Below, piece after piece: positions 9,289 through 53,348 of a stretch of DNA of 53,348 bases. The position numbers and the translations under genes were made by a program. Positions within the stretch are counted from its first letter, which is position 1, and each line of letters opens with the position of its first letter. This stretch comes from a virus, in the IMG/VR virus record IMGVR_UViG_3300011440_000005, positions 1 to 53,348 of that record; one strand, given 5' to 3'. The notes under the pieces are model-generated. The model did not search any database, was not told where the DNA came from, and saw only the letters and a list, made by a program, of their open reading frames with translations.

Positions 9289-9322
9289 ATTGGCCCCAAC
9301 TACAACCTACGGGTGGTAGTTG

Positions 9323-9736
9323 ATGCTATGCACGACAGAAGGCTGCAACCGTCCCGCTCAGATCGACAAGACACTCTGCGGTTGGTGCTATCAGGGGACT
9401 CGCCCGAAAAAGCCTAGGAAAGATCGACGGGAAGCTGGTCGAAGGTACTACCAGAAGAAGCGGGCAGAAGACTCGGAGTACCTCCGCACAATAGGGAACC
9501 GGCCCTGGCTTGATGACCTGAAGGCTTCGACTCCCTGCGCTGATTGTGGGCAGATATACCCTGCTTGCGTGATGGACTTCGATCATCGTCCTGGTGAAGA
9601 GAAGCTCTTTAGGGTTGCAGGCATGGTTACTCGTCGTCGAGAGCTTGTCGAAGCTGAGATTGAGAAGTGCGACATTGTTTGCTCCAACTGTCATCGGATT
9701 CGCACTCATCTGACTCGCAAGGGCCGAAATGCTTGA
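9323..9736 (+). CDS. HNH endonuclease (second copy, different family)
   Basis: CADCG...MDFDHRPGEEK...IEKCDIVCSNCHRIRTH pattern typical of actinophage HNH proteins; ATG 9323 (TTG 9320 in the track). Confidence 0.8.
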   Translation: MLCTTEGCNRPAQIDKTLCGWCYQGTRPKKPRKDRREAGRRYYQKKRAEDSEYLRTIGNRPWLDDLKASTPCADCGQIYPACVMDFDHRPGEEKLFRVAGMVTRRRELVEAEIEKCDIVCSNCHRIRTHLTRKGRNA

Positions 9737-19977: not shown

Positions 19978-20032
19978 AACTACAGTTTATCTGTAGTTCT
20001 GCGTTCCCACTGCTGCGTGAAACTACAGTTTT
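19975..20032 (+). promoter_or_regulatory. X-X'-X repeat element: tgaaactacagttt (x2, direct) with the inverted copy ctgtagtt between them
   Basis: aactacag 19978-19985, ctgtagtt 19991-19998, aactacag 20021-20028 followed by tttt. The middle arm can pair with either flanking copy. Confidence 0.45.
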
Positions 20033-20106
20033 AGTTGAGTTCGACTCCATTCTGAGGACACTCTGCGGGGGGTATGTGAGAACCCCTTCGGTTCCCCAGG
20101 CTTGAA

Positions 20107-28810: not shown

Positions 28811-29323
28811 ATGAGAAACCTTAGACGTAAGTTCATCATCCTTGCGGCCCTGGCCGTGGCCCTTGTGGCTCTCGGTGGAGCCAAGCCACCCAACTCGGAG
28901 GTATTGGAGGTTGTGTCCCAGGACGTGACCATCAACGCCAACGCCTCCGAGGTCACCTGCATCACCCCGTTCTTCGATGGTGGTCCCGCACACACCGGGT
29001 ATTGCTACAACTACAACGACGCTAATTGCTCCCCGGTTCAGCACCCGTTGACCAAGGTCTTCTTCAAGAGTGTGGGTACCGCTCAAGGCGCTAAGACCGC
29101 AGCAACCGTGATGATGGATGACAACGACGACCCCCCTGACTTCAAGACTACCTATCATCGTCAGGGAATAGTCCCTGGTGATGGTTGGAAGAAGGTAGCT
29201 CAGAAGGGCGGCAACATTGGCGACCTGGGCGACACTCTTCTCACAGGGCGAGGGTCCGGGTGGATCACGGTGACGGGCATAGGTCAATTCTTGATCCTGG
29301 TGAGGAACACTTGCACCGTTTGA
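28811..29323 (+). CDS. Exported or membrane-anchored protein (N-terminal signal/anchor)
   Basis: ATG 28811: MRNLRRKFIILAALAVALVALGGA...; locally AT-richer start region. Confidence 0.65.
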   Translation: MRNLRRKFIILAALAVALVALGGAKPPNSEVLEVVSQDVTINANASEVTCITPFFDGGPAHTGYCYNYNDANCSPVQHPLTKVFFKSVGTAQGAKTAATVMMDDNDDPPDFKTTYHRQGIVPGDGWKKVAQKGGNIGDLGDTLLTGRGSGWITVTGIGQFLILVRNTCTV

Positions 29324-29346
29324 GGACACTGCTCGGGCGGTAGGTG

Positions 29347-31278
29347 ATGAAACTCACCAAGAATCTTCTCGCCCTTGTCCTTGTCTTGCTGTTGGGTGGG
29401 GGAGCCACCTATGCGATAGCCCAATCTGACACTGTCACCATCCCTTTCGCTGAAGGTGACAAGGTTGTCCTTGATCTACCAGGTGACCTCAATGTGGTGC
29501 TGGAGGGTGTGGTGGAGACCACAACCACCACTACGGCTCCAACAACCACGACCACTGAGCCGCCCACTACCACAACCACGGAACCTCCGACGACCACTAC
29601 GGAGGCCACCACAACCACGACGTTGCCGCCTACGACGACAACGCTGCCGCCTACCACCACGACGGTCCCGCCGACAACGACGACCACAAGCCCCCCGGAG
29701 GGCCTTTGCGGGCCTGTTGATCGTACCATTACTGGCAATCAGCCTGGGTTTGTGGTACCTGAGGACGAACATTGGCGAGTGACCGGAACGCTCACCTCCA
29801 CGGGCACCATCATGGTCCACGGTTGCTTGTCCGCTCGCTCTGGTGTGACCATCAACATGGGTGGCAACCAGATACAGGTCATGGGCGACTCCAATTCGAT
29901 GGGTGTCCTCGACTTCGACGGGGGTAACGGTGGCCCACGGTGGACCCATGCTGACGGCTCCCCTTTACCCACAGGTTGGGCGCAGGGCACGACGGTACTA
30001 GCCGCACCCCACGTTCAGGGAGTCCGAGCCTCAAGTTCCGTCACTCTCGGCGCAAACCTGCCAACTCTGACCTACCCGGTTCCCGCTCACTCCCCTGCGT
30101 TCACTGAGCTTGTCCGCACCAATGCGGGGATCACTGTCAACCTCGCCAGCCGCATCATGTGGATGGTCGAAGGCGAGGACCAGGTGGGCGACGTGGCCCC
30201 CCTCATTCCCGGCTGCCCGTGTCCTTCACTGTTCTCCAATGTAGCCGTGATCGACTCGGGCAATGCCACAGCTAACGGTGGGTTGAGTTTCTATCCCATC
30301 CACTTCCACAGGGTAGGTAACAATGTCAGAGGAACAGTCGTCGATCACTCACTCGTGCTGCGGGGCAAGAATCACGCTTACGTCGCCCACGCTGCCCACG
30401 GAATCACCTTCCGGGACTCTGTGGCTGTTGATCCCGAAGGGGCTGCCTTCTGGTGGGACGTACGAGAAGCTGGCCGAGGAACTGATCCAGACCCTAGCTC
30501 TGAATCAGATGACGTGGTCTACGACCGAGTTGGGGTGCTTGGACAGCGACCAGGGAACGGTGTAGAAGCTCCACCGGAGACCACCGCTCTGCTCATCGGT
30601 CACGGTGTCGGCAACGTCATGCGTGATTCGTGGGTGGCTGGCTCACAGCTACAGGGTATACCCAACGGCTCCTGCGTCCACTGGTCCGCTGTAACCAACG
30701 GCTTTGAAGACACCTGGATCGTTGAACGCATCACCTGCCATCATTCCACCCAGGAGAACGGCCACTTCTGGTGGTACAACCACACGGGTTCCGGTGGAGG
30801 CGACGCTCACTTCGTCGTTGACAACATCATCGTGGACGCTGGGCAGAATGCCATAAGGGTGGGCGCTTACAACCAGTCGAGCGAACCAGCTAAGTACGTC
30901 AACCTTGTAACTGATGGGCGCATCCTCCTGAACGTGCAGGGTGTGAACACCCAGTCGCAGGACCATGTCACCATCCAAGGTGGGCACGCCGCCAACATCA
31001 CCGTCGCTCACCACGTCGCTGCTGGTCGAACCGAGTCAGCCACTGTTCGTCCCTCCTTTGAGGTGATAGGCATGGACTTGGAAACAGGTGTCATCATCAA
31101 CGAAAGCCTGGGCGGGCAGACGCAACCTGGTCGTGGAAGGTTCAGCGGTGTGACCGTGGACGGTTCACCGATTACGAGGTCGCAGGTGACCACACCGTTC
31201 ATCCAGTCGGGTTCCCGCTACTCGTTCTCCAATAACACTTGGCCCAACCAGACTTTCAGTTTCCATGTCCCTTCCTGA
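29347..31278 (+). CDS. Secreted protein: signal peptide, Thr/Pro-rich linker, beta-helix-like putative glycan-degrading domain
   Basis: MKLTKNLLALVLVLLLGGGATYAIA/QSD. About 60 aa of T/P repeats (c. 29520-29700). The YPIHFH string is, from memory, reminiscent of G8/parallel beta-helix glycanases. Confidence 0.75.
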   Translation: MKLTKNLLALVLVLLLGGGATYAIAQSDTVTIPFAEGDKVVLDLPGDLNVVLEGVVETTTTTTAPTTTTTEPPTTTTTEPPTTTTEATTTTTLPPTTTTLPPTTTTVPPTTTTTSPPEGLCGPVDRTITGNQPGFVVPEDEHWRVTGTLTSTGTIMVHGCLSARSGVTINMGGNQIQVMGDSNSMGVLDFDGGNGGPRWTHADGSPLPTGWAQGTTVLAAPHVQGVRASSSVTLGANLPTLTYPVPAHSPAFTELVRTNAGITVNLASRIMWMVEGEDQVGDVAPLIPGCPCPSLFSNVAVIDSGNATANGGLSFYPIHFHRVGNNVRGTVVDHSLVLRGKNHAYVAHAAHGITFRDSVAVDPEGAAFWWDVREAGRGTDPDPSSESDDVVYDRVGVLGQRPGNGVEAPPETTALLIGHGVGNVMRDSWVAGSQLQGIPNGSCVHWSAVTNGFEDTWIVERITCHHSTQENGHFWWYNHTGSGGGDAHFVVDNIIVDAGQNAIRVGAYNQSSEPAKYVNLVTDGRILLNVQGVNTQSQDHVTIQGGHAANITVAHHVAAGRTESATVRPSFEVIGMDLETGVIINESLGGQTQPGRGRFSGVTVDGSPITRSQVTTPFIQSGSRYSFSNNTWPNQTFSFHVPS

Positions 31279-32846: not shown

Positions 32847-33060
32847 TGTACAACGTGCGGTGGTCACCAGGGCAGACGTAGTACCACTTGTCGCCCTCGC
32901 CCTTGTGATAGAACGTTCTGTCAGGTTTCCGGTCTGTCCGAGTCCACAACACTGGCCCGTAGTTATACGGGTCATTGTCGGTGACGTGAACCGCACCTTC
33001 GTAGTCGCACCAAACGAAGCCATTGACTTCCTGTAGGGGTGGGGTCATCTTGGTCTTCAT
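32812..33060 (-). CDS. Hypothetical protein downstream of integrase
   Basis: ATG 33060 in ATGA overlap with the integrase stop; 82 aa. Confidence 0.6.
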   Translation of the reverse strand: MKTKMTPPLQEVNGFVWCDYEGAVHVTDNDPYNYGPVLWTRTDRKPDRTFYHKGEGDKWYYVCPGDHRTLYIIVTMDESDPL

Positions 33061-33962
33061 ATGTCCCAACCTGCCTTCCTCACCGCTCGGGCGGCAGCGT
33101 CGGCCCGCTTCTCCAAGTAGACCTGGGTGGTGCCCAGGTTGCTGTGCCGCAGAGCGGCAGAGGTCGCTTCGATCCCAGCGAGCTTGTGTACCTGACCGGC
33201 GAACGACCGTCGCATGTCGTGCGGACTGAACTTCCCGTAGCGGCGCACCACGTTGTATACACCACTCCCGGAGAGCCGTTGACCCCACTCAGGGGTCTGG
33301 CTAACTTCCCCGGTAGCGAAGTTGACCAGTCTACGGAACCGTACTATCACCGGAGAGGCCCCCAGAACGCCGTCTAAGCCATTCTTTGCCTCGACCCTTA
33401 GGTGGGAGAGGGTAGAAGCCAGAGAATCGCTCACAGCGACGACAGCAGCCTTCCTGTTCTTACCCACGACTCGTATCTCCCTGCGTTCCAGGTCCACGTC
33501 GCCCCAGTTGAGGCTGGCTATCTCCGTGCGGCGGAGACCACAACCGAAACCGAGGCGTAGGATCGCCATGTCACGGACCCCCATCAGGGTGTCAGGTACC
33601 GCCCCCAGGACGTCCTCTATCTCGGAGCGCTCCATCCAACGATGCACAGCCACAGGCACCGGCTTTACCGGCACGAGTGCAGTGAGCCTAGCGGCAGGAT
33701 TGCTGGGGATGAGGTCACGGGTGTGCGCCCAGGTGAAGAACCCTTTCAGGTGGGAGCGGTAGTTGGTGCGGGTGGTGTCGCCGCAGGTCTGCTCCAGCAA
33801 CCAGTCGACGAGGTGCTTCTCAGTGAAGTTTTCCAGGTCGACGTGCGGGTAGCGCTCCTGCACTCGGGACAGGAGCCTGCGGTAGGTGGTGGCAGACTGT
33901 GTGGTGTGCAACCAGGTTGGGTCCGCTGCTCCCAGTTTAAACGCTTCGGGGTAGAGCCTCAT
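33057..33962 (-). CDS. int: Tyrosine recombinase / integrase (XerC/D-sized, 301 aa)
   Basis: ...HDMRRSFAGQV...LRHSNLGTTQVYLE is the C-terminal catalytic H-x-x-R ... H ... Y pattern; SAM-like N-terminal domain; start MRLYPE in ATGA overlap with the upstream micro-ORF (alt. 33989). Confidence 0.9.
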   Translation of the reverse strand: MRLYPEAFKLGAADPTWLHTTQSATTYRRLLSRVQERYPHVDLENFTEKHLVDWLLEQTCGDTTRTNYRSHLKGFFTWAHTRDLIPSNPAARLTALVPVKPVPVAVHRWMERSEIEDVLGAVPDTLMGVRDMAILRLGFGCGLRRTEIASLNWGDVDLERREIRVVGKNRKAAVVAVSDSLASTLSHLRVEAKNGLDGVLGASPVIVRFRRLVNFATGEVSQTPEWGQRLSGSGVYNVVRRYGKFSPHDMRRSFAGQVHKLAGIEATSAALRHSNLGTTQVYLEKRADAAARAVRKAGWDI

Positions 33963-34084
33963 TGCATGCCCGCTCTGCACCCCCGGCACACCCAGGTAGC
34001 CAGGAAGTATTGGTTCAGCAGGACTCCGCTGAGGACATCCATCTCATCGAGGGGGTACGTCCACTTGCAGATTTCACAAGCCAT
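33959..34084 (-). CDS. 41-aa zinc-ribbon micro-protein (MACEICKW...CRGCRAGMQ)
   Basis: Not in the ORF track (<60 aa); two CxxC pairs; stop overlaps the integrase start (ATGA). Confidence 0.4.
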   Translation of the reverse strand: MACEICKWTYPLDEMDVLSGVLLNQYFLATWVCRGCRAGMQ

Positions 34085-38256: not shown

Positions 38257-38628
38257 TCACCACAACAATTCTCCAGGGTGCTTGGGGCATTCATAGTCGA
38301 GGGTGTCCTGGTCTTTCTGCCAAGACTTGAGTAGTTCCAATGCGAAAGGTTCGGGGAAGCACCAAGCAACATGAAGAGGGCGTCCTGCTGGTCGCTTGCC
38401 ATAAACAAAAGCCCACCGTTGACCGTGGAGGGCGAACATCAACTGGAGTCGGATAGCTGGGAAAGTCTCCCGGTACTTGGCCTCGACCGGGAACGGACAA
38501 CCCGCTATGTCCCAGCTTGGCTCGTTGTCCTTACGCCGATGGGTGGTGGGCCAGAGCGGCAGGAGCTTCCCTACCACTCGCCGCTCAAACCAAGAACCGA
38601 GTGCCTTGCTCTTGTTCATGTTGACCAC
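38257..38628 (-). CDS. PD-(D/E)xK nuclease, Holliday-junction-resolvase-like
   Basis: GSWFERRVV..L ... DIAGCPFPVEAKY resembles the Hjc-type G..FE..V ... D ... E.K pattern; start may be ATG 38619. Confidence 0.55.
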   Translation of the reverse strand: MVNMNKSKALGSWFERRVVGKLLPLWPTTHRRKDNEPSWDIAGCPFPVEAKYRETFPAIRLQLMFALHGQRWAFVYGKRPAGRPLHVAWCFPEPFALELLKSWQKDQDTLDYECPKHPGELLW

Positions 38629-38652
38629 TCTAGTAGACTCGGTGTCACCAAG

Positions 38653-39009
38653 TCAAGCGCTCCGACGTTGAGCCTTGTAGTGGTCGAGCCACAGATACTG
38701 CTCCCGATCCGTGGCCGACATGCCACCCCACACGCCCGTGGTGACCCGGTTGATGATCGCCCACTCCCCGCAGGGGATGATGGCGGGGCACTCCTGGCAG
38801 ACCTCTTTAGCTGTCTGCGTGAGCCTTCGGGACACACCACCCGTCTTCGGGAAGAACACATCCTCCTGCCCAAGGCAGGGAGCGTTCGGGTTGCCGTCTT
38901 CCCCTTTGGTTAGACGTCGCACTTCCCTGATTAGGTCTTCCCGGTGGAATGGGATTGGCTCCATCTCGTCTATGGAGCCTCGGGGCCTACCTCGTCCACG
39001 TTCGGTCAT
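38653..39009 (-). CDS. whiB: WhiB-family transcription factor
   Basis: C-x21-CQEC-x5-C cysteines plus GVWGG turn; start in ATGA overlap with the primase stop. Confidence 0.85.
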   Translation of the reverse strand: MTERGRGRPRGSIDEMEPIPFHREDLIREVRRLTKGEDGNPNAPCLGQEDVFFPKTGGVSRRLTQTAKEVCQECPAIIPCGEWAIINRVTTGVWGGMSATDREQYLWLDHYKAQRRSA

Positions 39010-41738: not shown

Positions 41739-41794
41739 GGGTGCTACCTCCTGTAGCTTGGGTTGCCCACTCTAGTGGACTGGTCGGACACTAG

Positions 41795-42601
41795 TCAACT
41801 GGCGTTGAGAGTCTGGCCGTAAGGACATTCTTGGTAGAAGTCGCAGTAGGTCTCTGAGCAGAGGTTGCTGGACGGGTTGGGCAGGAACGGCCCGTTACGT
41901 TCGATCAGGTCGGCCACCTGGATGGCCCTGACCTTGGTGAGAGCGATCTGAGGTTCAGTGCGGTGAGCGGGGATGCGGTCGAACCGGCCAGCGTGGGTCA
42001 TCACGTCGTAGACGAAGCTCACCTCATGCGTGCCGAGTATCTCCCGGTAGACGTCGAGGTACCAGGCAGCCTGGCTGGAGGCAGCAGCCGTGGATTTCTT
42101 CGCTGACCAGCGCTTGGTGCTGGTCTTGTGGTCCACGAGGTAGTACCAGCCGGTGTTTAGGTTCTGGAGCAGCAGGTCGATGGTGCCGTGACGCTTCCAC
42201 CCTTCGATCCAGTCGAGCGTGAAGGGTTGTTCCACAGCAACGACCCGGTACTCGTCGGGCCACTGGCACCCTTGGTCGAGGTACGCCAAGAGCATGCTTT
42301 CGATTAGCTCCTGAACCTCCCCGTAGGTCCAGATACGGTCGTTGACTTTCCAGTTGAACTGGTCAGTCCAGCGGAGGGTCTCGACGAAGCTCGCTGCTCC
42401 AGCAGCAAGGACATCTTCCTTGATGTACGCCAGACCGTTTAAACGACAGGTGTAGAGGTGGTCGAGTCCAGCGTGGTAGCCGGTGCCGAGGGCACGGCTC
42501 ACTCCCCCACGGTTCGGGCGATCAGGGTCGAGCGTGAACTCCAGTCGGGTCTGGCATATGTCGGCTGTGTTCAGCAGCGACTGGCGCATCAGCCGGGTCA
42601 T
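41795..42601 (-). CDS. Cas4/RecB-family PD-(D/E)xK exonuclease with Cys cluster
   Basis: N-terminal C (DICQ), D...VDHKT core, C-terminal C-x3-C-x5-C (CSETYCDFYQEC). Confidence 0.8.
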   Translation of the reverse strand: MTRLMRQSLLNTADICQTRLEFTLDPDRPNRGGVSRALGTGYHAGLDHLYTCRLNGLAYIKEDVLAAGAASFVETLRWTDQFNWKVNDRIWTYGEVQELIESMLLAYLDQGCQWPDEYRVVAVEQPFTLDWIEGWKRHGTIDLLLQNLNTGWYYLVDHKTSTKRWSAKKSTAAASSQAAWYLDVYREILGTHEVSFVYDVMTHAGRFDRIPAHRTEPQIALTKVRAIQVADLIERNGPFLPNPSSNLCSETYCDFYQECPYGQTLNAS

Positions 42602-44645: not shown

Positions 44646-45173
44646 TTAGTAAGGGATCGGCGTCCACCAGTTGGGGTCAAACACGTTGGCGCATGAGTAA
44701 GCGAGGCGCACTCGGAAGTTGCCTGCCGATGACACTTGCAATTTCACTTGAGCGTGTCCACCGTCGAATAGCCCTGGGTTGGTGTTGTGGCTGACGGTGA
44801 TCCCAACGTCATGGCTCGATGACCAATTCTGCGTGAGGGTGCGGTTGCCAGTGTCGGTAACCGGCCCGTACTCGGTCTCCCCGCCGTTGTCAATAACCAT
44901 CCACGCTTTGCCTTCGTCGTAGATGGCCTGACCGGGAGCGCTGTCTGCTTCACGAGCGCCTATGGCGAGATAGCGTGATTCGGTGGCCTGGTCACAGACC
45001 CATCCAAGGTTGTTGGGCGAATCCATAACGATGACCCGTTCACCGGCTGCTTTGAAGACGGTCTTGAACTGATCCTCCGAGGGGTCAGCGAGGGCTGGTG
45101 CGGCTGTAGCCGCAAGGAATACGGATGCGGTCAGGACGCCTAATGCGAGCTTCCGCTTGAGAGGGGTCTTCAT
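44646..45173 (-). CDS. Secreted beta-rich protein of unknown function
   Basis: Signal peptide MKTPLKRKLALGVLTASVFLAATAAPALA/DP; two Cys. Confidence 0.75.
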   Translation of the reverse strand: MKTPLKRKLALGVLTASVFLAATAAPALADPSEDQFKTVFKAAGERVIVMDSPNNLGWVCDQATESRYLAIGAREADSAPGQAIYDEGKAWMVIDNGGETEYGPVTDTGNRTLTQNWSSSHDVGITVSHNTNPGLFDGGHAQVKLQVSSAGNFRVRLAYSCANVFDPNWWTPIPY

Positions 45174-45181
45174 ACCTACCG

Positions 45182-45205
45182 CCCGGGGCGTGTAGTCGCC
45201 CCAGG
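45182..45205 (-). terminator. Intergenic hairpin upstream of the secreted-protein gene
   Basis: Minus sense cctggggcg-actaca-cgccccggg (9 bp incl. one G.U); no U-tract. Confidence 0.3.
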
Positions 45206-45239
45206 TCGGGGCGGGATGAGATGAGTGAGAACCTCTCGC

Positions 45240-45449
45240 TCAGTTGGCTGAGACCCGGAGAGCGAAGAGCGCTCCCCCAGTGAATGCCTCAGCCTGGTCG
45301 GTGGTGAACATTTCCTGGTTAAACCGGTCGATCTGGATGATCCACCGGATACGGTCACTGTCGGGTTCGGAGTCACGCACGAAACCCTGGATCACGTTCA
45401 GGGTTCGCAACTGCTCCAACTTCTCAGCAAGCCGACTAGATCGGCTCAT
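45240..45449 (-). CDS. Hypothetical protein
   Basis: ATG 45449 (MSRSSRLAEK...) in ATGA overlap with the upstream stop. Confidence 0.55.
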   Translation of the reverse strand: MSRSSRLAEKLEQLRTLNVIQGFVRDSEPDSDRIRWIIQIDRFNQEMFTTDQAEAFTGGALFALRVSAN

Positions 45450-45631
45450 ATTAAGTACTCCAATCTCAGGGCAGCGCACTCTTTGCAGCGCAGCTTCCCT
45501 GTTCGTTTCGCTTCCTTGATTACGGTGGTCTGATTGACGGGCTGCCAACCCACCACTTCGACCTGGATTTGGTCACGGGCAGTGAGAGCGGTTCCGCATT
45601 TAACGCAGAGGCCGAGTATCATCTCAGCCAC
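45446..45631 (-). CDS. Zinc-ribbon protein
   Basis: CVKCG ... CKEC; start GTG 45631 or ATG 45622. Confidence 0.6.
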   Translation of the reverse strand: MAEMILGLCVKCGTALTARDQIQVEVVGWQPVNQTTVIKEAKRTGKLRCKECAALRLEYLI

Positions 45632-45818
45632 GCTCCCACCACCTCGGGTGTTGGTAGACGGCCCTATTGCCCCTTTCGGGACAACTCGGGCTGCATACGA
45701 ACAACCCCACGCCTGGCATGTCGGGATAGTTGGCGGGGGTCAGGTAGGTGTTGAAGGCGGGTGTGTCTATCCCACACAGCGCACATACTGGTTCCCACGG
45801 TTTACGCTTAGCGTTCAC
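45624..45818 (-). CDS. Small Cys-rich protein
   Basis: GTG start with GGAGG 8 nt upstream; CALCG ... CSPSC. Confidence 0.55.
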   Translation of the reverse strand: MNAKRKPWEPVCALCGIDTPAFNTYLTPANYPDMPGVGLFVCSPSCPERGNRAVYQHPRWWERG

Positions 45819-45839
45819 CAGTGGCCTCCAAATGGTCAG

Positions 45840-45927
45840 GTAGAACGTTCGGACGTTCTACTACGGTCTTCTGAGGTCATGGTCGTGCGCCTTGGGGCTG
45901 GACGAGTGTAAGCCCTTCACCAGCCCC
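45840..45927. promoter_or_regulatory. Two further hairpins in the 270-nt gap
   Basis: gtagaacgt-tcgg-acgttctac (45840-45861) and ggggctgg-N18-ccagcccc (45894-45927). Confidence 0.4.
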
Positions 45928-45958
45928 TCGGCGTTCCTGTCTTCCTCCTTGTGGTCAG

Positions 45959-46062
45959 CCGGTCCTGGTTTGGACCGGTCATTGAGGGGCAGCCTATAGG
46001 TAGGTCCAAAGCCTTACCGGATAAACCGGACACTTGGCACTAAACCCTGCCCCTCAATGGCC
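45959..46062. promoter_or_regulatory. Double-hairpin element A (paralogue of 48636-48723)
   Basis: S1 ccggtcc-tggttt-ggaccgg; S2 cattgaggggcag ... ctgcccctcaatg (13 bp). Flanked by an SD-like string, aggaggaagaca in minus sense, with no start codon after it. Confidence 0.55.
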
Positions 46063-46080
46063 CACCTCGTAGTCGAGGTG
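46063..46080 (-). terminator. Hairpin just downstream of gene 46091..46339
   Basis: cacctcg-tagt-cgaggtg, 7-bp stem. Confidence 0.35.
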
Positions 46081-46090
46081 AGCCAACCTT

Positions 46091-46339
46091 TCACTCAAAC
46101 AAGTAGTCGAAGTCCTCGGTCATTGCGGCGATGCCGTCAATGTCGTCACCGAGTAGCTCAAACATTGCCGCACTTACTGCGGCTGCCGCCTTGTTCTCGT
46201 TCACGCTGTGGTTCTCACCGAAGACATGGCAGCCCTCGGCTGCGAAGAGCCGCTGCGCTTGTTTAAACGGCACGTCATCGACCTCGTGCAGCGAGTCCAT
46301 CTCCCAGGGTTCGCCACACTGTGGGCAGCGAATATCCAT
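46091..46339 (-). CDS. Hypothetical protein (N-terminal CPQCG)
   Basis: 82 aa with a GAAGGAGG RBS. Confidence 0.65.
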   Translation of the reverse strand: MDIRCPQCGEPWEMDSLHEVDDVPFKQAQRLFAAEGCHVFGENHSVNENKAAAAVSAAMFELLGDDIDGIAAMTEDFDYLFE

Positions 46340-46402
46340 GATTCCTCCTTCTCCAAGTCCGAATGGCTTGGACAGAGCGCACCTTGATGCGCTCTGCTCA
46401 AG
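46340..46402 (-). repeat. Intergenic cassette copy 1 (hairpin 1 + hairpin 2 + AGAAGGAGG)
   Basis: Minus sense: cagagcgca-tcaagg-tgcgctctg; tccaag-ccattcgga-cttgga; gaaggaggaatcATG. Confidence 0.7.
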
Positions 46403-46990
46403 TCACCCATCGATCATTTCTATGTTGTCCTGCGGGCATATCGGGTAGCCGGTGTCCAACCATTTCTGCGTGACTCGCACCGTGTACCCACACTCAACGC
46501 ACATAGCCTTCAGCAGCCGGGTGCCCTGCTTGGGTCCACTGCTACTTGAGCCGGTTTTGATTGCTGTGTGCGGATACTCACCGAGGCGCTTCAATAACGG
46601 CTGAATAGCCTTCTTGAAGTCATCACCTGCGACCGTGGCGCTTGGTTTGCCAACTAGGCCGATCGCCCTGACGCTCTTCGTGAACCCCGCCTTGTGTCCA
46701 TCCGTGGGATGAGCAACATGCACAAGCTCGTGAGCGAGGGTTGCCAGCACCTCGACCGGGTCACTCAGTACTGGACTGACGAACAAATGACTGTCTTTGC
46801 GTTCCCCTGCGGGGTGCCAGCACTCACCGATCCGACGCTGACGGGCCGACGTTGCTCCCTTGGACGGCCAACCCACGCTAACCGTCCAGGGACTAAGCAA
46901 CTTGACTCCTGCGCCCTCCAGGAAGCCCTCCAGCAGCTTCCCGGCTTTGATGAGCCACTGCTCCCGGGTTACGGGCCTAGTGGCGCTCAT
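46403..46990 (-). CDS. SprT-like zinc metalloprotease with C-terminal zinc ribbon
   Basis: LAHELVHVAH (HExxH) and CVECGYTVRV...ICPQ. Confidence 0.75.
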   Translation of the reverse strand: MSATRPVTREQWLIKAGKLLEGFLEGAGVKLLSPWTVSVGWPSKGATSARQRRIGECWHPAGERKDSHLFVSPVLSDPVEVLATLAHELVHVAHPTDGHKAGFTKSVRAIGLVGKPSATVAGDDFKKAIQPLLKRLGEYPHTAIKTGSSSSGPKQGTRLLKAMCVECGYTVRVTQKWLDTGYPICPQDNIEMIDG

Positions 46991-47214
46991 AGCTCATCCT
47001 CGTGGCTGGCGTTGATCGCCAGCCAATCCTCTGCGATGTCACCGTTTGGGGCGATGAGTCCCGCATCAATGAGAGCTTGAGCGGTTCGACCATACGAACC
47101 TTGCAGACTCCAGGCCATACCAGTCCCAATCAAGTGACTGAACAACTCCAGAATCGCCTGGTCATCGGCCTCGCCAGTTTCGTAGGCCATGATGCCACTG
47201 ACTAAGTCATACAT
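46987..47214 (-). CDS. Hypothetical protein
   Basis: ATG 47214 (MYDLVSGIMAYE...) with a GAGAAGGAGG RBS; the long N-terminal extension in the track is Arg/Ser-rich shadow. Confidence 0.6.
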   Translation of the reverse strand: MYDLVSGIMAYETGEADDQAILELFSHLIGTGMAWSLQGSYGRTAQALIDAGLIAPNGDIAEDWLAINASHEDEL

Positions 47215-47287
47215 TCTCTGCCTCCTTCTCCAGTACTGAATGCACTGGTGGGAATGCACCGTGTTTAAACGGCACACTCCCATCAGG
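47215..47287 (-). repeat. Intergenic cassette copy 2
   Basis: Minus sense: 13-bp hairpin gggagtgtgccgt-ttaaac-acggtgcattccc (3 G.U) containing GTTTAAAC; ccagt-gcattcagt-actgg; agaaggaggcagagaATG. Confidence 0.7.
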
Positions 47288-47704
47288 TCACTCACACCAC
47301 ACCTTCTCGGTGCGCTTCTCAATGGTCGCACCAGGCCAGAACACACCATGCTCGGCCTCGACCGAACGCAAGTGTGCCAGCCACTTGTCCGCTTCCGCCT
47401 TCGTGCGGAAGTAGGCAATATGAACGGGGTAACCGAAGTTCGGCTCAGGGAAGGTTGCCTCCCACGAGGTGACCGTGATCTGTCGGTCATAACCCATTTC
47501 GCACGCCTGGCACAAATAGTCCGGTCCCGCCCAGGAGCCGATGAAGCTCCCATGACGGCAGTACTGCGAGGGGTCGTTGTGGTTGGCGTCGTAGCCAAGC
47601 TCGTCGTCTAGGTCACTGGTGGGGAACGGTGCCAGCCCGCCGTTGTCGACGGTTGGCCCGTCCTCATACCAGGACATTGGAACGTTGGTCTCTCCGTATG
47701 CCAT
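47288..47704 (-). CDS. Hypothetical protein
   Basis: ATG 47704 (MAYGETN...) after an AGGAGGAAG RBS; 138 aa. Confidence 0.65.
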   Translation of the reverse strand: MAYGETNVPMSWYEDGPTVDNGGLAPFPTSDLDDELGYDANHNDPSQYCRHGSFIGSWAGPDYLCQACEMGYDRQITVTSWEATFPEPNFGYPVHIAYFRTKAEADKWLAHLRSVEAEHGVFWPGATIEKRTEKVWCE

Positions 47705-47777
47705 GACTCTTCCTCCTGTTTTCCCCAATGCCTAATTGCACTGGTGAGAACGCCCCGTAGGGCGCTCTCATCAGCCT
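47705..47777 (-). repeat. Intergenic cassette copy 3
   Basis: Minus sense: gagagcgccc-tacg-gggcgttctc; ccagtg-caattagg-cattgg; aggaggaagagtcATG. Confidence 0.7.
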
Positions 47778-47810
47778 TCAGGCGTCAGATCGTTGGGTTG
47801 ACTTCGGCAT

Positions 47811-47876
47811 TTCCTATCCTCCTTCTCCAAGCTCCAATGGCCTGGTGGAAACGCAGCACGCTGCGCTCCCATTAGG
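47811..47876 (-). repeat. Intergenic cassette copy 4 (followed only by a 10-codon micro-ORF, 47778..47810)
   Basis: Minus sense: gcgcag-cgtg-ctgcgt hairpin; ccagg-ccattggag-cttgg; ggagaaggaggataggaaATG, identical to copy 5. Confidence 0.7.
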
Positions 47877-48125
47877 TCACGAGAATCGAAGTTCACTAAC
47901 AATGGCGTCGAACAGGTTCTCGCCACGCATCCAAGCGGTCTCGCCTTTGAAGGTCTTAGCCCGACCCTTGTAGGATCGACCACGCCACGGCTTGCTCGTT
48001 TCGATGTCTCGGGCTGTAACTCGCCACACGCCATATTCGTGATGGAAACCATCGGGTGTGGTGTATGCATCGGACTCCAATGTCACCGACACACCTTTGA
48101 CGGTGATTGAGTCGTGCAATTTCAT
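47877..48125 (-). CDS. Hypothetical protein
   Basis: 82 aa with a GGAGAAGGAGG RBS. Confidence 0.65.
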   Translation of the reverse strand: MKLHDSITVKGVSVTLESDAYTTPDGFHHEYGVWRVTARDIETSKPWRGRSYKGRAKTFKGETAWMRGENLFDAIVSELRFS

Positions 48126-48192
48126 TTCCTATCCTCCTTCTCCAGTCCACAGTGGGCTGGTGGGAATGCCCCGTAAGGCGCTCCCATCAAGC
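48126..48192 (-). repeat. Intergenic cassette copy 5
   Basis: Minus sense: gggagcgcc-ttacgg-ggcattccc; ccag-cccactgtgga-ctgg; ggagaaggaggataggaaATG. Confidence 0.7.
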
Positions 48193-48408
48193 TCACCAGC
48201 GGTCGACCTCATGCTCCCATTGAGCCTTCTCAACCTGGCTCATTGCTTGCCACTCTTTGAACTGGTCGAGGTGGCCTAGGCACATCGGCTCGTCCTTGCT
48301 GACGATTGCTCGCTCGCAACGACCACCCGAAGGGCCGAAGTCCTCATCGAAGTAAGGCACTATCTCGGCGCAAAGACCAGCGTCGTGAAGTGCTTCCTCG
48401 TAGTTCAT
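48193..48408 (-). CDS. Hypothetical protein
   Basis: 71 aa with a TAGGAGGAAG RBS. Confidence 0.65.
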   Translation of the reverse strand: MNYEEALHDAGLCAEIVPYFDEDFGPSGGRCERAIVSKDEPMCLGHLDQFKEWQAMSQVEKAQWEHEVDRW

Positions 48409-48419
48409 GCTTCCTCCTA

Positions 48420-48617
48420 TCAGATCGTCACGTCGAAATGGTCAATGGTCAGAACGTTGCTGTCGGGCAGCATCACTTCGTAGTAACGCTCATCAGCGGG
48501 GTAACGGCGAACCGAAACCTCAGTGCCAACAGCAAAGCTTGCACCAGTGAAATGACCAATCTCCCGGTTCAACCATGCGGTGAACCAGGGGTTGTTTGAA
48601 TCTTGGAAGTAGCTCAT
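48420..48617 (-). CDS. Hypothetical protein, first gene of the leftward block
   Basis: ATG 48617 (MSYFQDSNNPW...) after AGGAGGAAGACAA; the track start 48656 lies inside element B. Confidence 0.6.
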   Translation of the reverse strand: MSYFQDSNNPWFTAWLNREIGHFTGASFAVGTEVSVRRYPADERYYEVMLPDSNVLTIDHFDVTI

Positions 48618-48635
48618 TTGTCTTCCTCCTATCAG

Positions 48636-48723
48636 CCGGTGACGTTCACCGGTCATTGAGGGGATCAGAGCATCCAGGCTTGCCTAGGTTCCTGGTAGCT
48701 ATAGCCCGATCCCCTTAATGGCC
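48636..48723. promoter_or_regulatory. Double-hairpin element B (paralogue of 45959-46062)
   Basis: S1 ccggtga-cgt-tcaccgg; S2 cattgaggggatc ... gatccccttaatg (13 bp, one G.T); lies 19 nt from the start of 48420..48617. Confidence 0.55.
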
Positions 48724-49795
48724 CGCCAGGTTGTCCTAGCGAGCCGAAGGAAGAAAAAGAGGTTCTCACTCACCCCTGCGTGACCTGGCCGTGGTTGTCT
48801 CTCCACGGTCGCCCGCTCCCGAGGTGGTCGGGGTGGTCCTTCCGGTGCTGCGCACCTTCAGCTTTCCCCTGGCGATCGGCTGGAGAGCCGATCAACCCCC
48901 TCCGGGGTCAAGGCCAGGTTCTGAGGGCAGGAGCCACTCCCGAGGCCGGTGGTGACCTTGGCCCGAGGGCTGATCGAGTACCGGCAAGCCGGACTCTAGT
49001 CGACCAGTACGACAACGTCAAGTTCACCAGTAAACCCCAGTTCTGGCCGTTCTCGAGAAGGTTGCACAGTGCAACCAACAGGGGAACGGGCCGAACTGCC
49101 CGATAAGCCTGGCGCTTAACCCCCCGCCCCCAGTGGGTGGAGCGAAATTGAGCGCCCACTCAAACTAAGGCTGGCACCCGAAGGAGGGGCAGCACGCAGG
49201 TAGATGTCAAAGACAGCGCCACTAACAGAGGTGATGCACCAGGCACCATGCGGTGGTGATGCAGCCAACAGCCTTACAGCGTTATATAGCTCACTCGAAC
49301 AGTGTTCGATAGCTCAAATGAGTGTGATCTGCACCCACAACGAGCACGTGACCAGCCCGTCCTGCGAGTGCAACGGTCCAACCAACAACACAGCGCACAA
49401 ACACCCAGGTCAGGAGCAGAAATCAACACCAACAGCCGAAAGGCTGACCGGGGTCCATTTATTTCCCCAGCAGCAGTGTGGGGAAGGTCACTGTCACAAG
49501 TACCGGACAGTCCAGTGTCTGTTAGGGGTGCTAGTAGCCTGTTTAGTAGCTGTTTGTTGGCTTGGGCCAGGTCAACTTGGGGCTTGGTGGGGGCTTCGCC
49601 CCCTTTAGCCACCTGTTTCTTGGTGTTTGTCAGTGGTTGACTACATGTGGAGGGGGTGTCCCACCCCCGACGTGTCAGCAAACTAAGAACTAGTGCGGCT
49701 TCGCCGCCTTGCTGGACGCAAAGAACGACCCTAGGGCCGGGGGGGTATCTTTCGACTGTGCCTGGTAGGGGCTGCCAGGGCTAGACGAAACCCGG
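48724..49795. other. 1.07-kb region without credible ORFs; hairpin- and repeat-rich (candidate large ncRNA(s) and/or replication origin)
   Basis: All track ORFs here have implausible composition. Multiple 6-9-bp perfect stems, tandem repeats and an AT-rich palindrome are listed under findings. Confidence 0.6.
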
Positions 49796-50278
49796 TTAGG
49801 AAGGTAGAACCTTCTGGACTCGACGCTTCAATTCTTGTAGCTGCTCGTCAACAGTGGAGTTGACACTCGGACGGCTGTCGGTGTTGGTTACGCTCCGCCC
49901 AGCCCACGAATCTTTGTTGGTTCGTTGAAGCTGGTCGATGAGCCTGGAGGCTTCTCGCCTGGCGATGGGTATTTCCCCAGCCCAGCCAAGACCTCGTATG
50001 TAGTTCCGCTGTGCCTGGGTTGTCTCCCACCCTGGCGCTGCTGGCTTCCTAACAGGTCGGGACGAGCGGACTAGTGGTTTCTGCTCCAATGGTCGGGTGT
50101 CTGCTCCAACGAGCTTCGCCCAAGCTTCGATCCGGCTCGGGTCGTTGCGGAGTAGGCCGATGAGTTGAGTGGCCGCTCCGAGGGTGGGCGGGATTTCCGC
50201 CTCCCATCCCATTGAACGGAGAGTGTCGATCTCTCGTTGTGATGGGCCGACCTGGCCTCTCCGTCGTCTTGTGGTCAC
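49796..50278 (-). CDS. Hypothetical protein with two copies of a c. 35-aa helical repeat
   Basis: SQREIDTLRSMGWEAEIPPTLGAATQLIGLL and TQAQRNYIRGLGWAGEIPIARREASRLIDQL; GTG 50278 preferred over the Arg/Pro-rich extension to 50389. Confidence 0.55.
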   Translation of the reverse strand: MTTRRRRGQVGPSQREIDTLRSMGWEAEIPPTLGAATQLIGLLRNDPSRIEAWAKLVGADTRPLEQKPLVRSSRPVRKPAAPGWETTQAQRNYIRGLGWAGEIPIARREASRLIDQLQRTNKDSWAGRSVTNTDSRPSVNSTVDEQLQELKRRVQKVLPS

Positions 50279-50444
50279 TGTCTCTTCCTGCTGTCGTGTT
50301 CGATGGTGGAAGCCCCGCCCCCCGAGGGGGGAAGGAGGGAAAACCACCTCGGGCACCCTTGCGGGCCAGCCTGAGCGAGGCTTCCACACATACCCCCCGA
50401 GAAGTGTCCTCAGAGGGCTTGACCAAGCTAGCCGACCAGTCGAC

Positions 50445-50473
50445 TTGCATGCAAGGGTTGACTCGTCTAAGGT
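50445..50473 (+). promoter_or_regulatory. Candidate promoter TTGCAT-N17-TAAGGT; the -35 lies inside the 12-bp palindrome cttgcatgcaag
   Basis: Read directly; about 140 nt upstream of the first rightward gene. Confidence 0.3.
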
Positions 50474-50612
50474 GTGGGGGTACGCACTGACTAAGCCGTA
50501 ACAGGCAGAAAGAACGTGCCTACAGCGTCACCCGCAGGGGCGGGGGGAAGTTCTCTAGCGGAACTACCGCTTGGAACCCGCCCCGGTGGGTTTAAACGAA
50601 AGGAGTTGAGAG

Positions 50613-50843
50613 GTGGCAGTAGAGATAACAGCGGCTCCGTCACGGGAGCGTGACGTTGTTGGGGTGCTGCTGTACGACGAGCACCACGAGAATTTCAGTC
50701 TCAGCGTCAACATTTCGGTGGATGAGGCGAAAGACCTGATCTACAGGCTCGAAGTGGCCGTTCGCAAGATCGAACGCCGAGGGTCGCCGGATGAGTCCAT
50801 TTGGGGGCATCGGCATCCGAGTTACGACGAGATGGGAGGCTGA
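50613..50843 (+). CDS. Hypothetical protein
   Basis: GTG start with a GAAAGGAG RBS; 76 aa. Confidence 0.6.
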   Translation: MAVEITAAPSRERDVVGVLLYDEHHENFSLSVNISVDEAKDLIYRLEVAVRKIERRGSPDESIWGHRHPSYDEMGG

Positions 50844-50844
50844 T

Positions 50845-51156
50845 ATGGCTGAACGGATATCGAACCTTGATTTCCTGACGATCACCCCGGATCGGGTGAA
50901 CCAGCGGGTCACCCTGACCACAGACGGGGGGCGCAACTTCCACCTCCCGTTGGATGCCGTCGATGAACTGGTCGCCGGTCTGATGGAAGCAGCCGGTCAG
51001 GTGTCCGACCAGTCCCTCTTTGTGATAGGCGAATACGTCTGGTTGGTGGAAGACGTCGTGCTGTTTGTCGAGGACATCAAATGGGAGGGTGACACCTCCT
51101 ATGCGGTTCTTTCGGTCACGGTCCCGACCAGCAACATTTCAAGGACCCTACCGTGA
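50845..51156 (+). CDS. Hypothetical protein
   Basis: ATG 50845 (MAERISNLDF...) with a GGGAGG RBS. Confidence 0.6.
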   Translation: MAERISNLDFLTITPDRVNQRVTLTTDGGRNFHLPLDAVDELVAGLMEAAGQVSDQSLFVIGEYVWLVEDVVLFVEDIKWEGDTSYAVLSVTVPTSNISRTLP

Positions 51157-51624: not shown

Positions 51625-51821
51625 CCATGCCGATTCTGATAGTGATGTTGGGTTTGGTGAACTATGTTCTAGCCTTGCGGAACTTCTACCTGTTGGGCCG
51701 TTATGCTGACATCCCCAGGTTCTGGGTAGCCTATTTCTTCGTCCATGCCTCGTTCACCGTACCGCTCCTGGCTTTCGGGGTGGTGCGAGTGTTGCAGCAG
51801 TCGGGTGTGCTAAGTGCCTAA
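51621..51821 (+). CDS. Two-TM small membrane protein
   Basis: ATGA overlap; MPILIVMLGLVNYVLAL and FVHASFTVPLLAFGVV. Confidence 0.6.
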   Translation: MTMPILIVMLGLVNYVLALRNFYLLGRYADIPRFWVAYFFVHASFTVPLLAFGVVRVLQQSGVLSA

Positions 51822-52245: not shown

Positions 52246-53348
52246 ATGGCTGACCCCACCAACCCCGCTTACGCCGCCTGGTCCCGCCCCCGCCGAGTAG
52301 CAGCCGCAGTCCGCAAAGTCGTCGAAGACCAGTGGACCATTGTTGATTCCGCCCGTGAGTTCGGTGTCTCCCGTCCCTGGCTCTCCAAGAAGGTGGGGGA
52401 AGAGCGCCAAGCCATCGAAGCGAAAGTCGCTCGTGCTAGGGAGATACTCAGCCAGCGAGGGCCACGCATCGAAGAGAACACCCGGGTCGGCACCTTTGCT
52501 GAGTTTGAGCGCCGCTACTTCGGCCACCTCGGATGCCCCGACTGTGACGGGCAGATGCACGAGGTGCCCGACTGGCAGATCAAAGCCGATGAGGTGGTCA
52601 CTTCCACTGCCAAGCGGAAGCTCATCAACGTTCCACCGTTCCACGGTAAGACCACCCGCTATTCCATTCGGCACACCATTTATGACATTTGCCGTGACCC
52701 GAACAGCCGGACGATCATCCTTTCCAAGGCTGCCCCTCTGGCGGAAGACATCCTCGGGGCGATCAAAGCTCACCTCATGGACGAGGCGCTCTACGACAGC
52801 CACAACCTGATTGGAGACTACGGGCCGTTCTACAAGCCTGGCTCCTGGTCCGACGACCACATCTTCGTCACCGGTCGGGTCACCTCGGAGAAAGACCCAA
52901 CGGTTCTCACCATGGGTTGGACGGGTTCCCTTTACGGTCGGCGTGCCGACAAGATCAAGTTCGATGACGTAGCGGACGAACAGAACCAGGCGAACCCCGA
53001 CCAGGTCGCCAAGATGCTGAAGTGGATTGACCGCACCGCCCTGTCCCGTATCGGGAAGACCGGCCAGGCCGTCTTCATTGGTACCCGGGTCTCCAGCGGT
53101 GACATCTACTACCACCTGGCTAAGAGGCCAGGGTATGAGGTGGTCCGCTTCCCCTGTGTCCTCGATGAGACCAACGAGGAAGTGTTGTGGCCCGACCATT
53201 TCCCCTATGAGCAGGCGCTGATCCACAGGTCTGAGATGACAATGGCCGACTTCCAGTTGGTCTACCAGAACATCGACATCCCCGGGATCGGAGCTTCCTT
53301 CACGGAGGAAATGCTGGAGTTGACGAAAGACCCGTTGCGGGTACTCGG
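52246..53348 (+). CDS. terL: Terminase large subunit, N-terminal part (HTH-like leader + ATPase); continues at base 2
   Basis: ATG 52246. WTIVDSAREFGVSRPWLSKKV is HTH-like. Walker A PPFHGKTT (c. 52645) and Walker B KIKFDDVADE. The ORF is open to the window end; the full gene is 635 aa across the junction. Confidence 0.85.
   Translation, partial: MADPTNPAYAAWSRPRRVAAAVRKVVEDQWTIVDSAREFGVSRPWLSKKVGEERQAIEAKVARAREILSQRGPRIEENTRVGTFAEFERRYFGHLGCPDCDGQMHEVPDWQIKADEVVTSTAKRKLINVPPFHGKTTRYSIRHTIYDICRDPNSRTIILSKAAPLAEDILGAIKAHLMDEALYDSHNLIGDYGPFYKPGSWSDDHIFVTGRVTSEKDPTVLTMGWTGSLYGRRADKIKFDDVADEQNQANPDQVAKMLKWIDRTALSRIGKTGQAVFIGTRVSSGDIYYHLAKRPGYEVVRFPCVLDETNEEVLWPDHFPYEQALIHRSEMTMADFQLVYQNIDIPGIGASFTEEMLELTKDPLRVL
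53226..53348. repeat. Window-terminal direct repeat, identical to 1-123
   Basis: See first feature. Confidence 0.95.

Follow-up and report, generated by a model that had tools for sequence, protein, structure and literature searches.

Why should one short structured sequence stand again and again between unrelated small genes of a single phage operon? The question is posed by IMG/VR virus record IMGVR_UViG_3300011440_000005, the 53,348 nucleotides of which constitute the window analyzed here. A first-pass annotation, made from the sequence alone, had noticed that five gaps between small leftward genes follow one plan. These gaps do hold a homologous unit of about 60 bases, invariably on the minus strand and in one orientation, within 1.85 kb. 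The explanation favored here, at a probability of roughly 55%, is that the units are lineage-specific, promoter-less intercistronic expression cassettes that also serve as short-homology crossover points.

Five structured units in a small-gene array

In each unit the stop codon of the upstream gene is followed, after 5–7 nt, by a hairpin of 10–14 bp (hairpin 1), a second hairpin of 5–7 bp that abuts it with 0 nt between them (hairpin 2), the Shine–Dalgarno (SD) block CUGGAGAAGGAGG, and an ATG. CUGGAGAAGGAGG stands 4–7 nt ahead of the ATG in four of the five units, all on the minus strand, and the sequence that recurs in direct orientation spans approximately 55 nt. The copies, and the near-vacant position between two of them, are as follows (bit scores are those of covariance model R1, see below).

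48126–48192, minus strand: cassette c5, between the 71-aa and 82-aa genes (73.3 bits); hairpin 1 at 48186–48161, hairpin 2 at 48160–48142, SD block GGAGAAGGAGG at 48143–48133, ATG at 48125–48123
47811–47876, minus strand: cassette c4, downstream of the 82-aa gene and preceding only a 10-codon open reading frame (ORF) (70.9 bits); hairpin 1 at 47871–47846, hairpin 2 at 47845–47827, SD at 47828–47818
47769–47810, minus strand: empty slot, in which the 10-codon ORF (47810–47778) overlaps a gene remnant that runs into the start of c3
47705–47777, minus strand: cassette c3, upstream of the 138-aa gene (58.2 bits); hairpin 1 at 47770–47745, hairpin 2 at 47744–47725, diverged SD block GGGGAAAACAGGAGG with AGGAGG at 47717–47712
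47215–47287, minus strand: cassette c2, flanked by the 138-aa and DUF7417 genes (64.5 bits); hairpin 1 at 47282–47249 (14 bp, three G.U pairs), hairpin 2 at 47248–47230, SD at 47231–47221
46340–46402, minus strand: cassette c1, flanked by the gene for the SprT-like protease and an 82-aa gene (71.9 bits); hairpin 1 at 46397–46372, hairpin 2 at 46371–46353, SD at 46354–46344

Some details of the first description had to be amended. The distance from stop codon to hairpin 1, given as 3–7 nt, is 5–7 nt, and the "(c)CA(c)C" taken for a spacer between the hairpins is part of both, its A closing hairpin 1 and its CC opening hairpin 2. The loop of hairpin 2 is 3–6 nt long rather than 8–11 nt, the stems extending past CCAG/CTGG, and the CATT that had been read in this loop in four of the five copies is not at the homologous position in copy 3. 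The loops of hairpin 1 measure 4–6 nt, with a tetraloop in every copy except c2. Copies c4 and c5 are indeed identical at their 3′ ends, over 22 nt (ATG included) instead of the 20 nt first counted.

In every copy hairpin 1 has NCCA behind it. The 9–13 nt ahead of hairpin 1 contain, besides the real stop, another stop triplet (TGA or TAA) in all units; it abuts the hairpin 5–7 nt past the real stop, or 11 nt past it in c6; the latter and c5L are two more sequence variants, a sixth and a seventh, that occur in sister genomes. The tandem-stop motif TGA-N2-4-TRA (e.g., window 47290–47282) is conserved, and its two stops are out of frame in five of the seven units.

The covariance model R1 was built from six distinct sequences, namely the five window units and c6. 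Run against the 53-kb genome it recovered exactly five units, at 58.2–73.3 bits (E 1e-14 to 7e-19); the next matches, at 17 bits or less, were the antisense of the unit hairpins, and the best unrelated match reached 10.5 bits (E 0.24). Under a hand-specified structure, 93.7% of cells were occupied by standard pairs and 8 of 16 pairs were altered on both sides, in keeping with the earlier observation that the stems differ between copies and stay complementary. None of 500 shuffles attained the observed pairing or covariation values, and sliding the partners against one another brought pairing to 26–50%. Derived from six related sequences, this covariation support is suggestive rather than statistically rigorous, and it is consistent across both helices.

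The strand sense of the structure points in the same direction as the first-pass remark that its G.U pairs fit minus-sense RNA. The wobble pair G7.U30 is retained in five of the six distinct copies, and hairpin 1 folded alone is more stable in the mRNA sense in all six (summed −107.8 versus −77.1 kcal/mol). Folding was carried out per hairpin, giving stabilities of −14 to −22 kcal/mol, since whole-unit comparisons of sense and antisense minimum free energy (MFE) are confounded by the complement of the SD and hence uninformative. The hairpin structure appears to be selected at the RNA level.

The units carry the strongest SD sequences of the genome. GGAGAAGGAGG has four exact occurrences, every one of them inside a unit, and allowing up to one mismatch yields five matches against 1.6 expected; five of the nine AAGGAGG heptamers in the genome fall in the array region. 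The SD is unpaired in all five MFE folds.

Promoter and terminator consensus sequences are absent from the units. A scan of positions 45000–51000, limited to the sigma70-type consensus, placed no sigma70-like site inside any unit, the only one lying upstream at 49021–48993, and a TANNNT hexamer can be read in no copy. Six terminator-like sites (hairpin plus U-tract) were called in the same interval, none of them in a unit. The bases behind hairpin 1 are CCAG and those behind hairpin 2 AGAAGGAGG; lacking a U-tract directly behind it, neither hairpin has the form of an intrinsic (Rho-independent) terminator. As far as consensus scans tell, the units would be internal to one transcript. Rfam at its gathering threshold and ARAGORN returned nothing, and three sub-threshold matches to eukaryotic snoRNAs and miRNAs from a permissive Rfam scan of the array region were taken as chance. 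Two further pairings were dropped, one linking the 5′ arm of hairpin 1 with hairpin 2 (confined to c2 and not conserved) and the other a loop-to-flank pseudoknot, CCAUU/AAUGG (c4 only).

The genes flanked by cassettes are not paralogues, and paralogy was ruled out as the source of the repeat; since the flanked proteins are mutually unrelated, the units are not residues of a tandem gene duplication. Because the same ~55-nt direct repeat separates unrelated genes, the units probably act as short-homology crossover points. We envisage that on a polycistronic mRNA the two abutting hairpins would fold 5–7 nt past the upstream stop codon and that an unpaired, near-maximal SD (AAGGAGG) would be offered 4–7 nt ahead of the next ATG. 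Hairpin 1, with hairpin 2 stacked on it, would punctuate the early polycistronic RNA, where the pair may block 3′-to-5′ exonucleases and/or cap the 5′ end of a segment cut free in the single-stranded linker; a possible processing site there is the match of this linker to the mycobacterial RNase E motif described below. The strong SD would favor efficient translation of a small accessory gene independently of the gene upstream, and gene modules could be lost, possibly also gained, by crossover at the units without harm to neighboring genes. Co-transcription of the array, and the roles of the units in RNA stability, processing, and translation, are what we infer from the sequence; stabilization or processing of the mRNA, already put forward in the first-pass annotation, seems plausible.

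Haplotypes and gene flux at the cassettes

Relatives of the phage were recovered by exact-protein and DNA-pattern look-ups as ten partial contigs from ENA, Logan, and JGI samples, in addition to the window's own contig (L038, ENA contig ERZ27267691 k141_719533), to which the window is identical in sequence. A few short divergent patches excepted, these contigs are 98–100% identical to the window. Within approximately 1 kb they resolve into three haplotypes, none of which comes from fewer than two independent samples. Haplotype A (the window, L040, L041, and L042) has c5 alone between the 71-aa and 82-aa genes. Haplotype B (L039 and L070) has 661 bp extra, made up of c5L, three ORFs (27, 85, and 77 aa), and c6, after which comes the 82-aa gene. 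The c5 of the window equals c5L through both hairpins and c6 from GGATAGGAAATG on, and the switch falls inside a shared 12 nt, CTGGAGAAGGAG, in the SD block. The cassette c5 is a chimera of the two, with c5L supplying the 5′ part and c6 the 3′ part, and both parents are carried by L039, L059, L070, and L071. The difference between haplotypes A and B would then be a deletion or insertion of the 661-bp module. Recombination and gene shuffling at the units had been suggested from the window, with a synteny comparison among relatives as the check; the relatives do display gene exchange at the units, a module bracketed by two cassettes occupying the place where the window has one chimera.

Haplotype C (L059 and L071, which come from different sources) keeps the module and has a 131-bp deletion that joins TGACCTAATG, at the 5′ end of c4, to CAATTAGG, in the hairpin 2 loop of c3, with 2 nt of microhomology. 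With it go the mini-ORF and the two hairpins that precede the 138-aa gene. In the window this mini-ORF is the 10-codon ORF behind c4, which had been taken for an empty slot, a description that holds up well: the remnant matches the 3′ end of the 77-aa ORF of L039 over 26 of 27 nt at 47795–47769 and over 10 of 10 nt at 47806–47797 (E 1.7e-7 within the window). On account of this match the slot is taken to be the scar of a lost gene. Misassembly is an unlikely source of the haplotypes, because each occurs in at least two samples and because the 12-nt crossover repeat is far below the k-mer implied by the k141 contig names.

Beyond this lineage the cassette family was found neither in IMG/VR, JGI metagenomes, GTDB genomes, or GenBank phages nor in SprT-bearing phages. 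Megablast of the array against 50,697 phage records (GenBank phages) gave no match. The pattern CACCAG-N8-18-TGGAGAAGGAGG gave 36 single matches in IMG/VR, which were rejected as chance in view of their low model scores (15–21 bits) and lack of a hairpin 1. The pattern ATGGGAGYG-N8-24-GCRTTYCCACCAG matched twice in IMG/VR, 21 times in JGI metagenomes, and 9 times in GTDB genomes; of these matches L059 and L063 alone, both of this phage lineage, are real, the others being coding sequence of unrelated organisms in a number near the chance prediction. The pattern search, GTDB genomes included, identified no prophage copy or host. In phages with related SprT-like proteins (L066–L069, 47–52% identity) the genes are tightly packed without cassettes, and homologue searches with the 138-aa and 77-aa proteins brought up no additional close relatives.

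A number of these and other observations weigh against the explanation favored here. At the position of the 138-aa gene the hairpins are dispensable, because haplotype C is without both in two samples. In a comparison aimed at RBS insulation, the opening energies of the ribosome-binding site (RBS) did not differ between native and shuffled hairpins (fraction of shuffles at or below native, 0.05–0.55), which speaks clearly neither for nor against insulation; with the SD unpaired as well, the earlier suggestion that hairpin 2 occludes the SD gains no support. For hairpin 2 the sense strand gives the more stable fold in just four of six copies, a weak strand preference. Primary sequence is kept beyond pairing needs (the retained G.U, the invariant GAG.G, GC.T, and CCA), which hints at a trans-acting factor rather than passive structure. 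With the family confined to this lineage, there is no deep conservation to rely on.

Gene flux, moreover, takes place without cassettes. A 66-aa gene (window 51625–51819, plus strand) is missing from L039, where the junction is an ATGA-type start/stop overlap and the next gene is only ~81% identical. Over 1.84 kb L059 and L039 show 32 differences, every one of them in a 157-nt recombination patch inside the 82-aa gene (~80% identity; window 47877–48125, minus strand, versus L059 1813–1969), which has no cassette bounds. In the region of the SprT-like gene and c1 (window 46384–46900, minus strand), 45 of 50 differences of L063 and all 28 of those of L037 from the window are confined to the SprT-like gene, and the flanking genes are identical. 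These divergences are allelic, gene-internal mosaic patches; that of L063 terminates within the hairpin 1 loop of c1. Selection, too, would lead one to expect intergenic end-points in the indels that survive. Recombination is pervasive in this population and, because indels and mosaic patches also arise without cassettes, the cassettes are a favored site of gene flux that is neither required nor exclusive.

Rival readings and known systems

The alternative that survives best is that the units are specific endonuclease sites, at which early RNA is cut into monocistronic pieces in the manner of T7. This is possible though doubtful, and it overlaps the expression-cassette explanation, from which it differs only in demanding a specific cut. 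Early mRNAs of T7 and SP82 are cut at intercistronic hairpins; like the present units, the RNase III sites concerned, five of them in the T7 early region, are homologous structured elements that recur between early polycistronic genes. In SP82, the processed RNA is stabilized by a polypurine, SD-like sequence. The T7 sites, however, are single irregular hairpins of ~50–60 nt with an internal loop and demonstrated cleavage, whereas two short hairpins are found here. Candidate enzymes are RNase III, for which the substrate would be a coaxial stack of the two hairpins; RNase E, which would cut in the linker; and RNase P, which would recognize a minihelix followed by NCCA. The abutting hairpins could provide RNase III with a quasi-continuous helix of ~18–21 bp, although hairpin 1 by itself is short for this enzyme. 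By inspection, the linker that leads from the stop codon to hairpin 1 matches RN|CNU in five of six copies, the motif of mycobacterial RNase E, cleavage by which is enriched in intergenic regions (PMC10641625). The NCCA behind hairpin 1 in all copies would suit RNase P, but its CCA is paired within the covarying hairpin 2, and neither ARAGORN nor Rfam gave a tRNA-like match.

It is unlikely that the inverted repeats are protein sites at the DNA level (operators comparable to the extended start-associated sequences of Cluster K or to the inverted repeats found in Clusters O and EG, or else promoters formed by a hairpin as in N4) and not RNA structures. Start-associated inverted repeats of actinophages have been read as DNA-binding sites (PMC3203893; PMC7302621), several arm positions of the units are invariant, and the phage encodes very large proteins of unassigned function. 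Against this, the arms vary between copies yet stay complementary, a G.U pair turns into an A.C mismatch in the opposite strand, and hairpin 1 loses stability in antisense in every one of the six copies. A hairpin promoter like that of N4 was rejected, given that no RNA polymerase was recognized in the 1587- and 1794-aa proteins, the large proteins in question, and that hairpin 1 is weaker on the template strand.

The closest parallels to the units among actinophages are the start-associated sequences (SAS) and extended start-associated sequences (ESAS) of Cluster K mycobacteriophages and Cluster EF Microbacterium phages (PMC3203893; PMC7302621). There, too, an asymmetric, over-conserved SD motif lies a few nt (3–7 nt) before the ATG, non-structural genes follow unusually long gaps, an inverted repeat stands immediately upstream, and the elements are lineage-specific and in a single orientation. 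The SAS sequence, GGGATAGGAGCCC, nevertheless differs from the CUGGAGAAGGAGG of the units (PMC3203893). ESAS are imperfect inverted repeats of 17 bp whose departures from symmetry do not support RNA pairing, and they were judged to be DNA-binding sites (PMC3203893). The arms of ESAS do not co-vary, whereas the units have compensatory changes at 8 of 16 pairs and strand-specific G.U pairs; ESAS comprise one inverted repeat, whereas the units comprise two hairpins and have documented cassette-bounded indels.

As improbable as protein sites on the DNA is a role as mRNA binding sites for a trans-acting regulator, protein or small RNA, that co-ordinates all cassette genes. Conservation past pairing needs (the G.U in five of six copies, the invariant GAG.G, GC.T, and CCA) would be accounted for, as would that of the SD block past its 16S-complementary core, which has likewise been noted for SAS (PMC3203893). 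No candidate regulator was identified, however; the copies are recent paralogues whose conservation may merely reflect their age, and in haplotype C one position dispenses with the hairpins.

The comparison made in the first-pass annotation was with the promoter early stem-loop (PeSL) cassettes of T4-type phages. PeSLs are likewise repeated intergenic modules that run from an upstream stop to a downstream SD and start, have a stem-loop with G.U (G-T) pairs, cluster among small ORFans in a hyperplastic region, and may flank a module in whose place a close relative has just one, chimeric, cassette (PMC2839356; Arbiol et al., 2010; PMC4122927; Comeau et al., 2014). The ORF192 module of RB49 lies between two cassettes where phi1 has a single chimeric one (PMC2839356), which is the relation of haplotype B to haplotype A. 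By definition, though, a PeSL has a strong sigma70-like promoter and a terminator stem-loop (PMC2839356; Arbiol et al., 2010), and the units are without sigma70-like promoter, AT-rich upstream tract, and terminator U-tract. PeSLs have one hairpin and number ~50 copies genome-wide in T4-like myoviruses, whereas two abutting hairpins recur here in ~5–6 copies in one operon of a 59% G+C temperate phage, and the crossover falls in a 12-nt SD block. PeSL likeness can therefore be retained as a working analogy for how the units behave; membership cannot, because the defining sigma70-like promoter is missing. The units belong to neither the PeSL nor the SAS/ESAS family, much as they resemble both.

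That they are true promoter/terminator cassettes of the PeSL type nonetheless, with hairpin 1 terminating and a promoter in or around hairpin 2 restarting transcription, is very unlikely. The plan of stop, stem-loop with G.U pairs, SD, and start agrees with it, as do the plastic region of small ORFans and the chimeric-cassette indel (PMC2839356), but the scan, which covers the sigma70 type only, finds no promoter- or terminator-like site in the units, no copy has a TANNNT −10 hexamer or a U-tract behind either hairpin, and only ~40 nt, in part taken up by the SD, separate hairpin 1 from the ATG.

Genes can also be punctuated by tRNAs or tRNA-like structures, as in mitochondrial transcripts and MALAT1/mascRNA. 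By resemblance, hairpin 1 with its invariant NCCA might mimic a tRNA acceptor minihelix, so that host RNase P or another tRNA-processing enzyme would cut the early mRNA at each cassette and hairpin 2 would toggle the availability of the CCA. An acceptor-like substrate would have a helix of ~12 bp and a single-stranded NCCA, whereas the stems here measure 10–14 bp; the reading is weakened by the pairing of the CCA in the covarying hairpin 2 and seems far-fetched.

The repetitive extragenic palindromic (REP) sequences of enterobacteria and the bacterial interspersed mosaic elements (BIMEs) built from them are, like the T7 and SP82 sites, looser functional analogues. REPs protect upstream mRNA from 3′ exonucleases and may affect translation within ~15 nt of the stop codon. 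REPs and BIMEs share with the units the stable intercistronic hairpins just past stop codons within operons; they are, however, host elements in hundreds of copies, with a GTAG motif, REP-associated tyrosine (RAYT) transposases, and no SD block, whereas the units have no GTAG at the base of the hairpin and amount to five copies in one operon. No transposase was matched among the ~30 larger and array-region ORFs scanned, which are part of the proteome. An integron array was rejected, the sole tyrosine recombinase being Xer-like and ~13 kb away and the GTTRRRY core being absent. That the units are selfish elements, of the REP kind or like miniature inverted-repeat transposable elements, or integron attC sites, spread by a recombinase and devoid of any role in expression, is scarcely credible: intergenic palindromes do recur in a same-orientation array of promoter-less small genes, and a tyrosine recombinase is encoded at 33057–33989, but the units are held in fixed register with stop and start codons, include an SD, are confined to one operon, have as read from the sequence no terminal inverted repeats, target duplications, GTAG, or GTTRRRY core, and cross over in the SD block instead of the hairpin core, and the recombinase is a generic Xer-like one scoring 31 bits against the integron-integrase model TIGR02249 (cut-off 265).

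Repeated start-associated motifs have been catalogued across many actinophage clusters for more than 10 years without a demonstrated role, and PeSL-mediated shuffling has so far been reported essentially in T4-like phages. The present case joins the two in a promoter-less, RNA-structured cassette of an uncultured temperate phage, whose co-existing natural haplotypes capture two cassettes plus module, a single chimeric cassette, and a decayed slot. Should the proposed roles hold, plug-and-play expression signals doubling as recombination points would represent a convergent means of accessory-gene turnover in unrelated phages, and the unit would be a compact natural part (hairpins plus RBS) that might be tried for insulating cistrons from one another in high-G+C hosts. 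At present the cassette is of modest practical value.

The genome and its other repeats

The window comprises a complete phage genome of ~53.2 kb, assembled as a circle (bases 1–123 recur at 53226–53348), with a G+C content of 59%. It encodes portal and major head proteins, an M23 peptidase, an Xer-like tyrosine integrase, DnaB-like helicase and primase proteins, a PD-(D/E)XK exonuclease, and WhiB. The phage is probably temperate and its host probably an actinobacterium. Because the SprT-like protease of the array is ~45% identical to versions from Arthrobacter and Microbacterium phages and the capsid protein has a best identity of only ~34% to anything cultured, this assignment can be no firmer than probable.

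The array sits near the beginning of a long leftward operon, in which a 197-aa gene (49796–50389) is followed by 1.18 kb without a called gene (48618–49795), the small-gene array (45.9–48.7 kb), and replication genes. Five of seven genes flanking the cassettes have no family match, and the remaining two have none beyond an unnamed PHROG or a domain of unknown function (DUF). The gene-free 1.18-kb stretch (minus strand), upstream of the array, contains many hairpins and the sigma70-like sequence TTGACG-17-TAGAGT at 49021–48993. It gave no credible Rfam match, the whole of 45700–49900 yielding three sub-threshold matches at chance level. In L059, 46 bp of the stretch are deleted (window 49050–49095). 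A terminator-like hairpin with a T-tract (48777–48758) lies directly ahead of the upstream member of a second repeat family, type II. This family is separate and larger, follows the same plan of stop, hairpins, SD, and start, and brackets the cassette array.

48615–48745, minus strand: upstream type II element, three hairpins and then CTGATAGGAGGAAGACAAATG, starting the first array gene (65 aa)
45950–46092, minus strand: downstream type II element, with compensatory changes relative to the upstream copy and the SD AAGGAGGAAGACA, no start codon behind it

The compensatory differences between the two type II copies include GGCUCGCUAGG/CCUGGCGGGCC versus GGCUCACCUCG/CGAGGUGGGCC; the blocks GGGCCATTRAGGGG and CCCCTCAATGACCGGT are conserved, and the SD is AGGAGGAAGACA. 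Because no start codon stands behind its SD, the downstream copy may be another decayed slot. At the junction of the 65-aa and 71-aa genes (48409–48419, minus strand) there is an 11-nt gap without a hairpin (TGATAGGAGGAAGCATG), which might represent such an element in minimal form or what a deletion has left of it.

A different motif, GAGGACA-N10-GGTAnGTG, occurs four times against 0 expected, often leading straight into an ATG (1099–1123, 20054–20078, and 29322–29346 on the plus strand; 50387–50411 on the minus strand), with partial occurrences at 9311, 24484, and 26123. It is found on both strands, mainly in the structural half of the genome, and may represent either a promoter specific to this phage or a second kind of start-associated sequence. 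Short palindromic motifs in pairs, operator- or promoter-like in appearance, are present at 19975–20042 (plus strand), where TGAAACTACAGTTT...CTGTAGTTC occurs twice, 43 nt apart, and at 38620–38656 and 41762–41798 (plus strand), where GTTGMCCACTCTAGTRGACT...AGTCAA occurs twice, 3.1 kb apart.

Two giant ORFs on the plus strand, 3744–8507 (1587 aa) and 9729–15113 (1794 aa), lie between the portal and capsid genes, an unusual layout for an integrase-bearing temperate phage. The former contains DUF7178 and a SAM-lyase-like segment; the latter matched no family and no PDB sequence. In-frame coding repeats are present in a 524-aa ORF (23554–24239, plus strand; units of ~60 nt) and in a beta-helix-like ORF of 644 aa (29521–29681, plus strand; ACC/ACG-rich, hence Thr-rich, repeats of 18–24 nt), both of which probably encode tail or fiber proteins.

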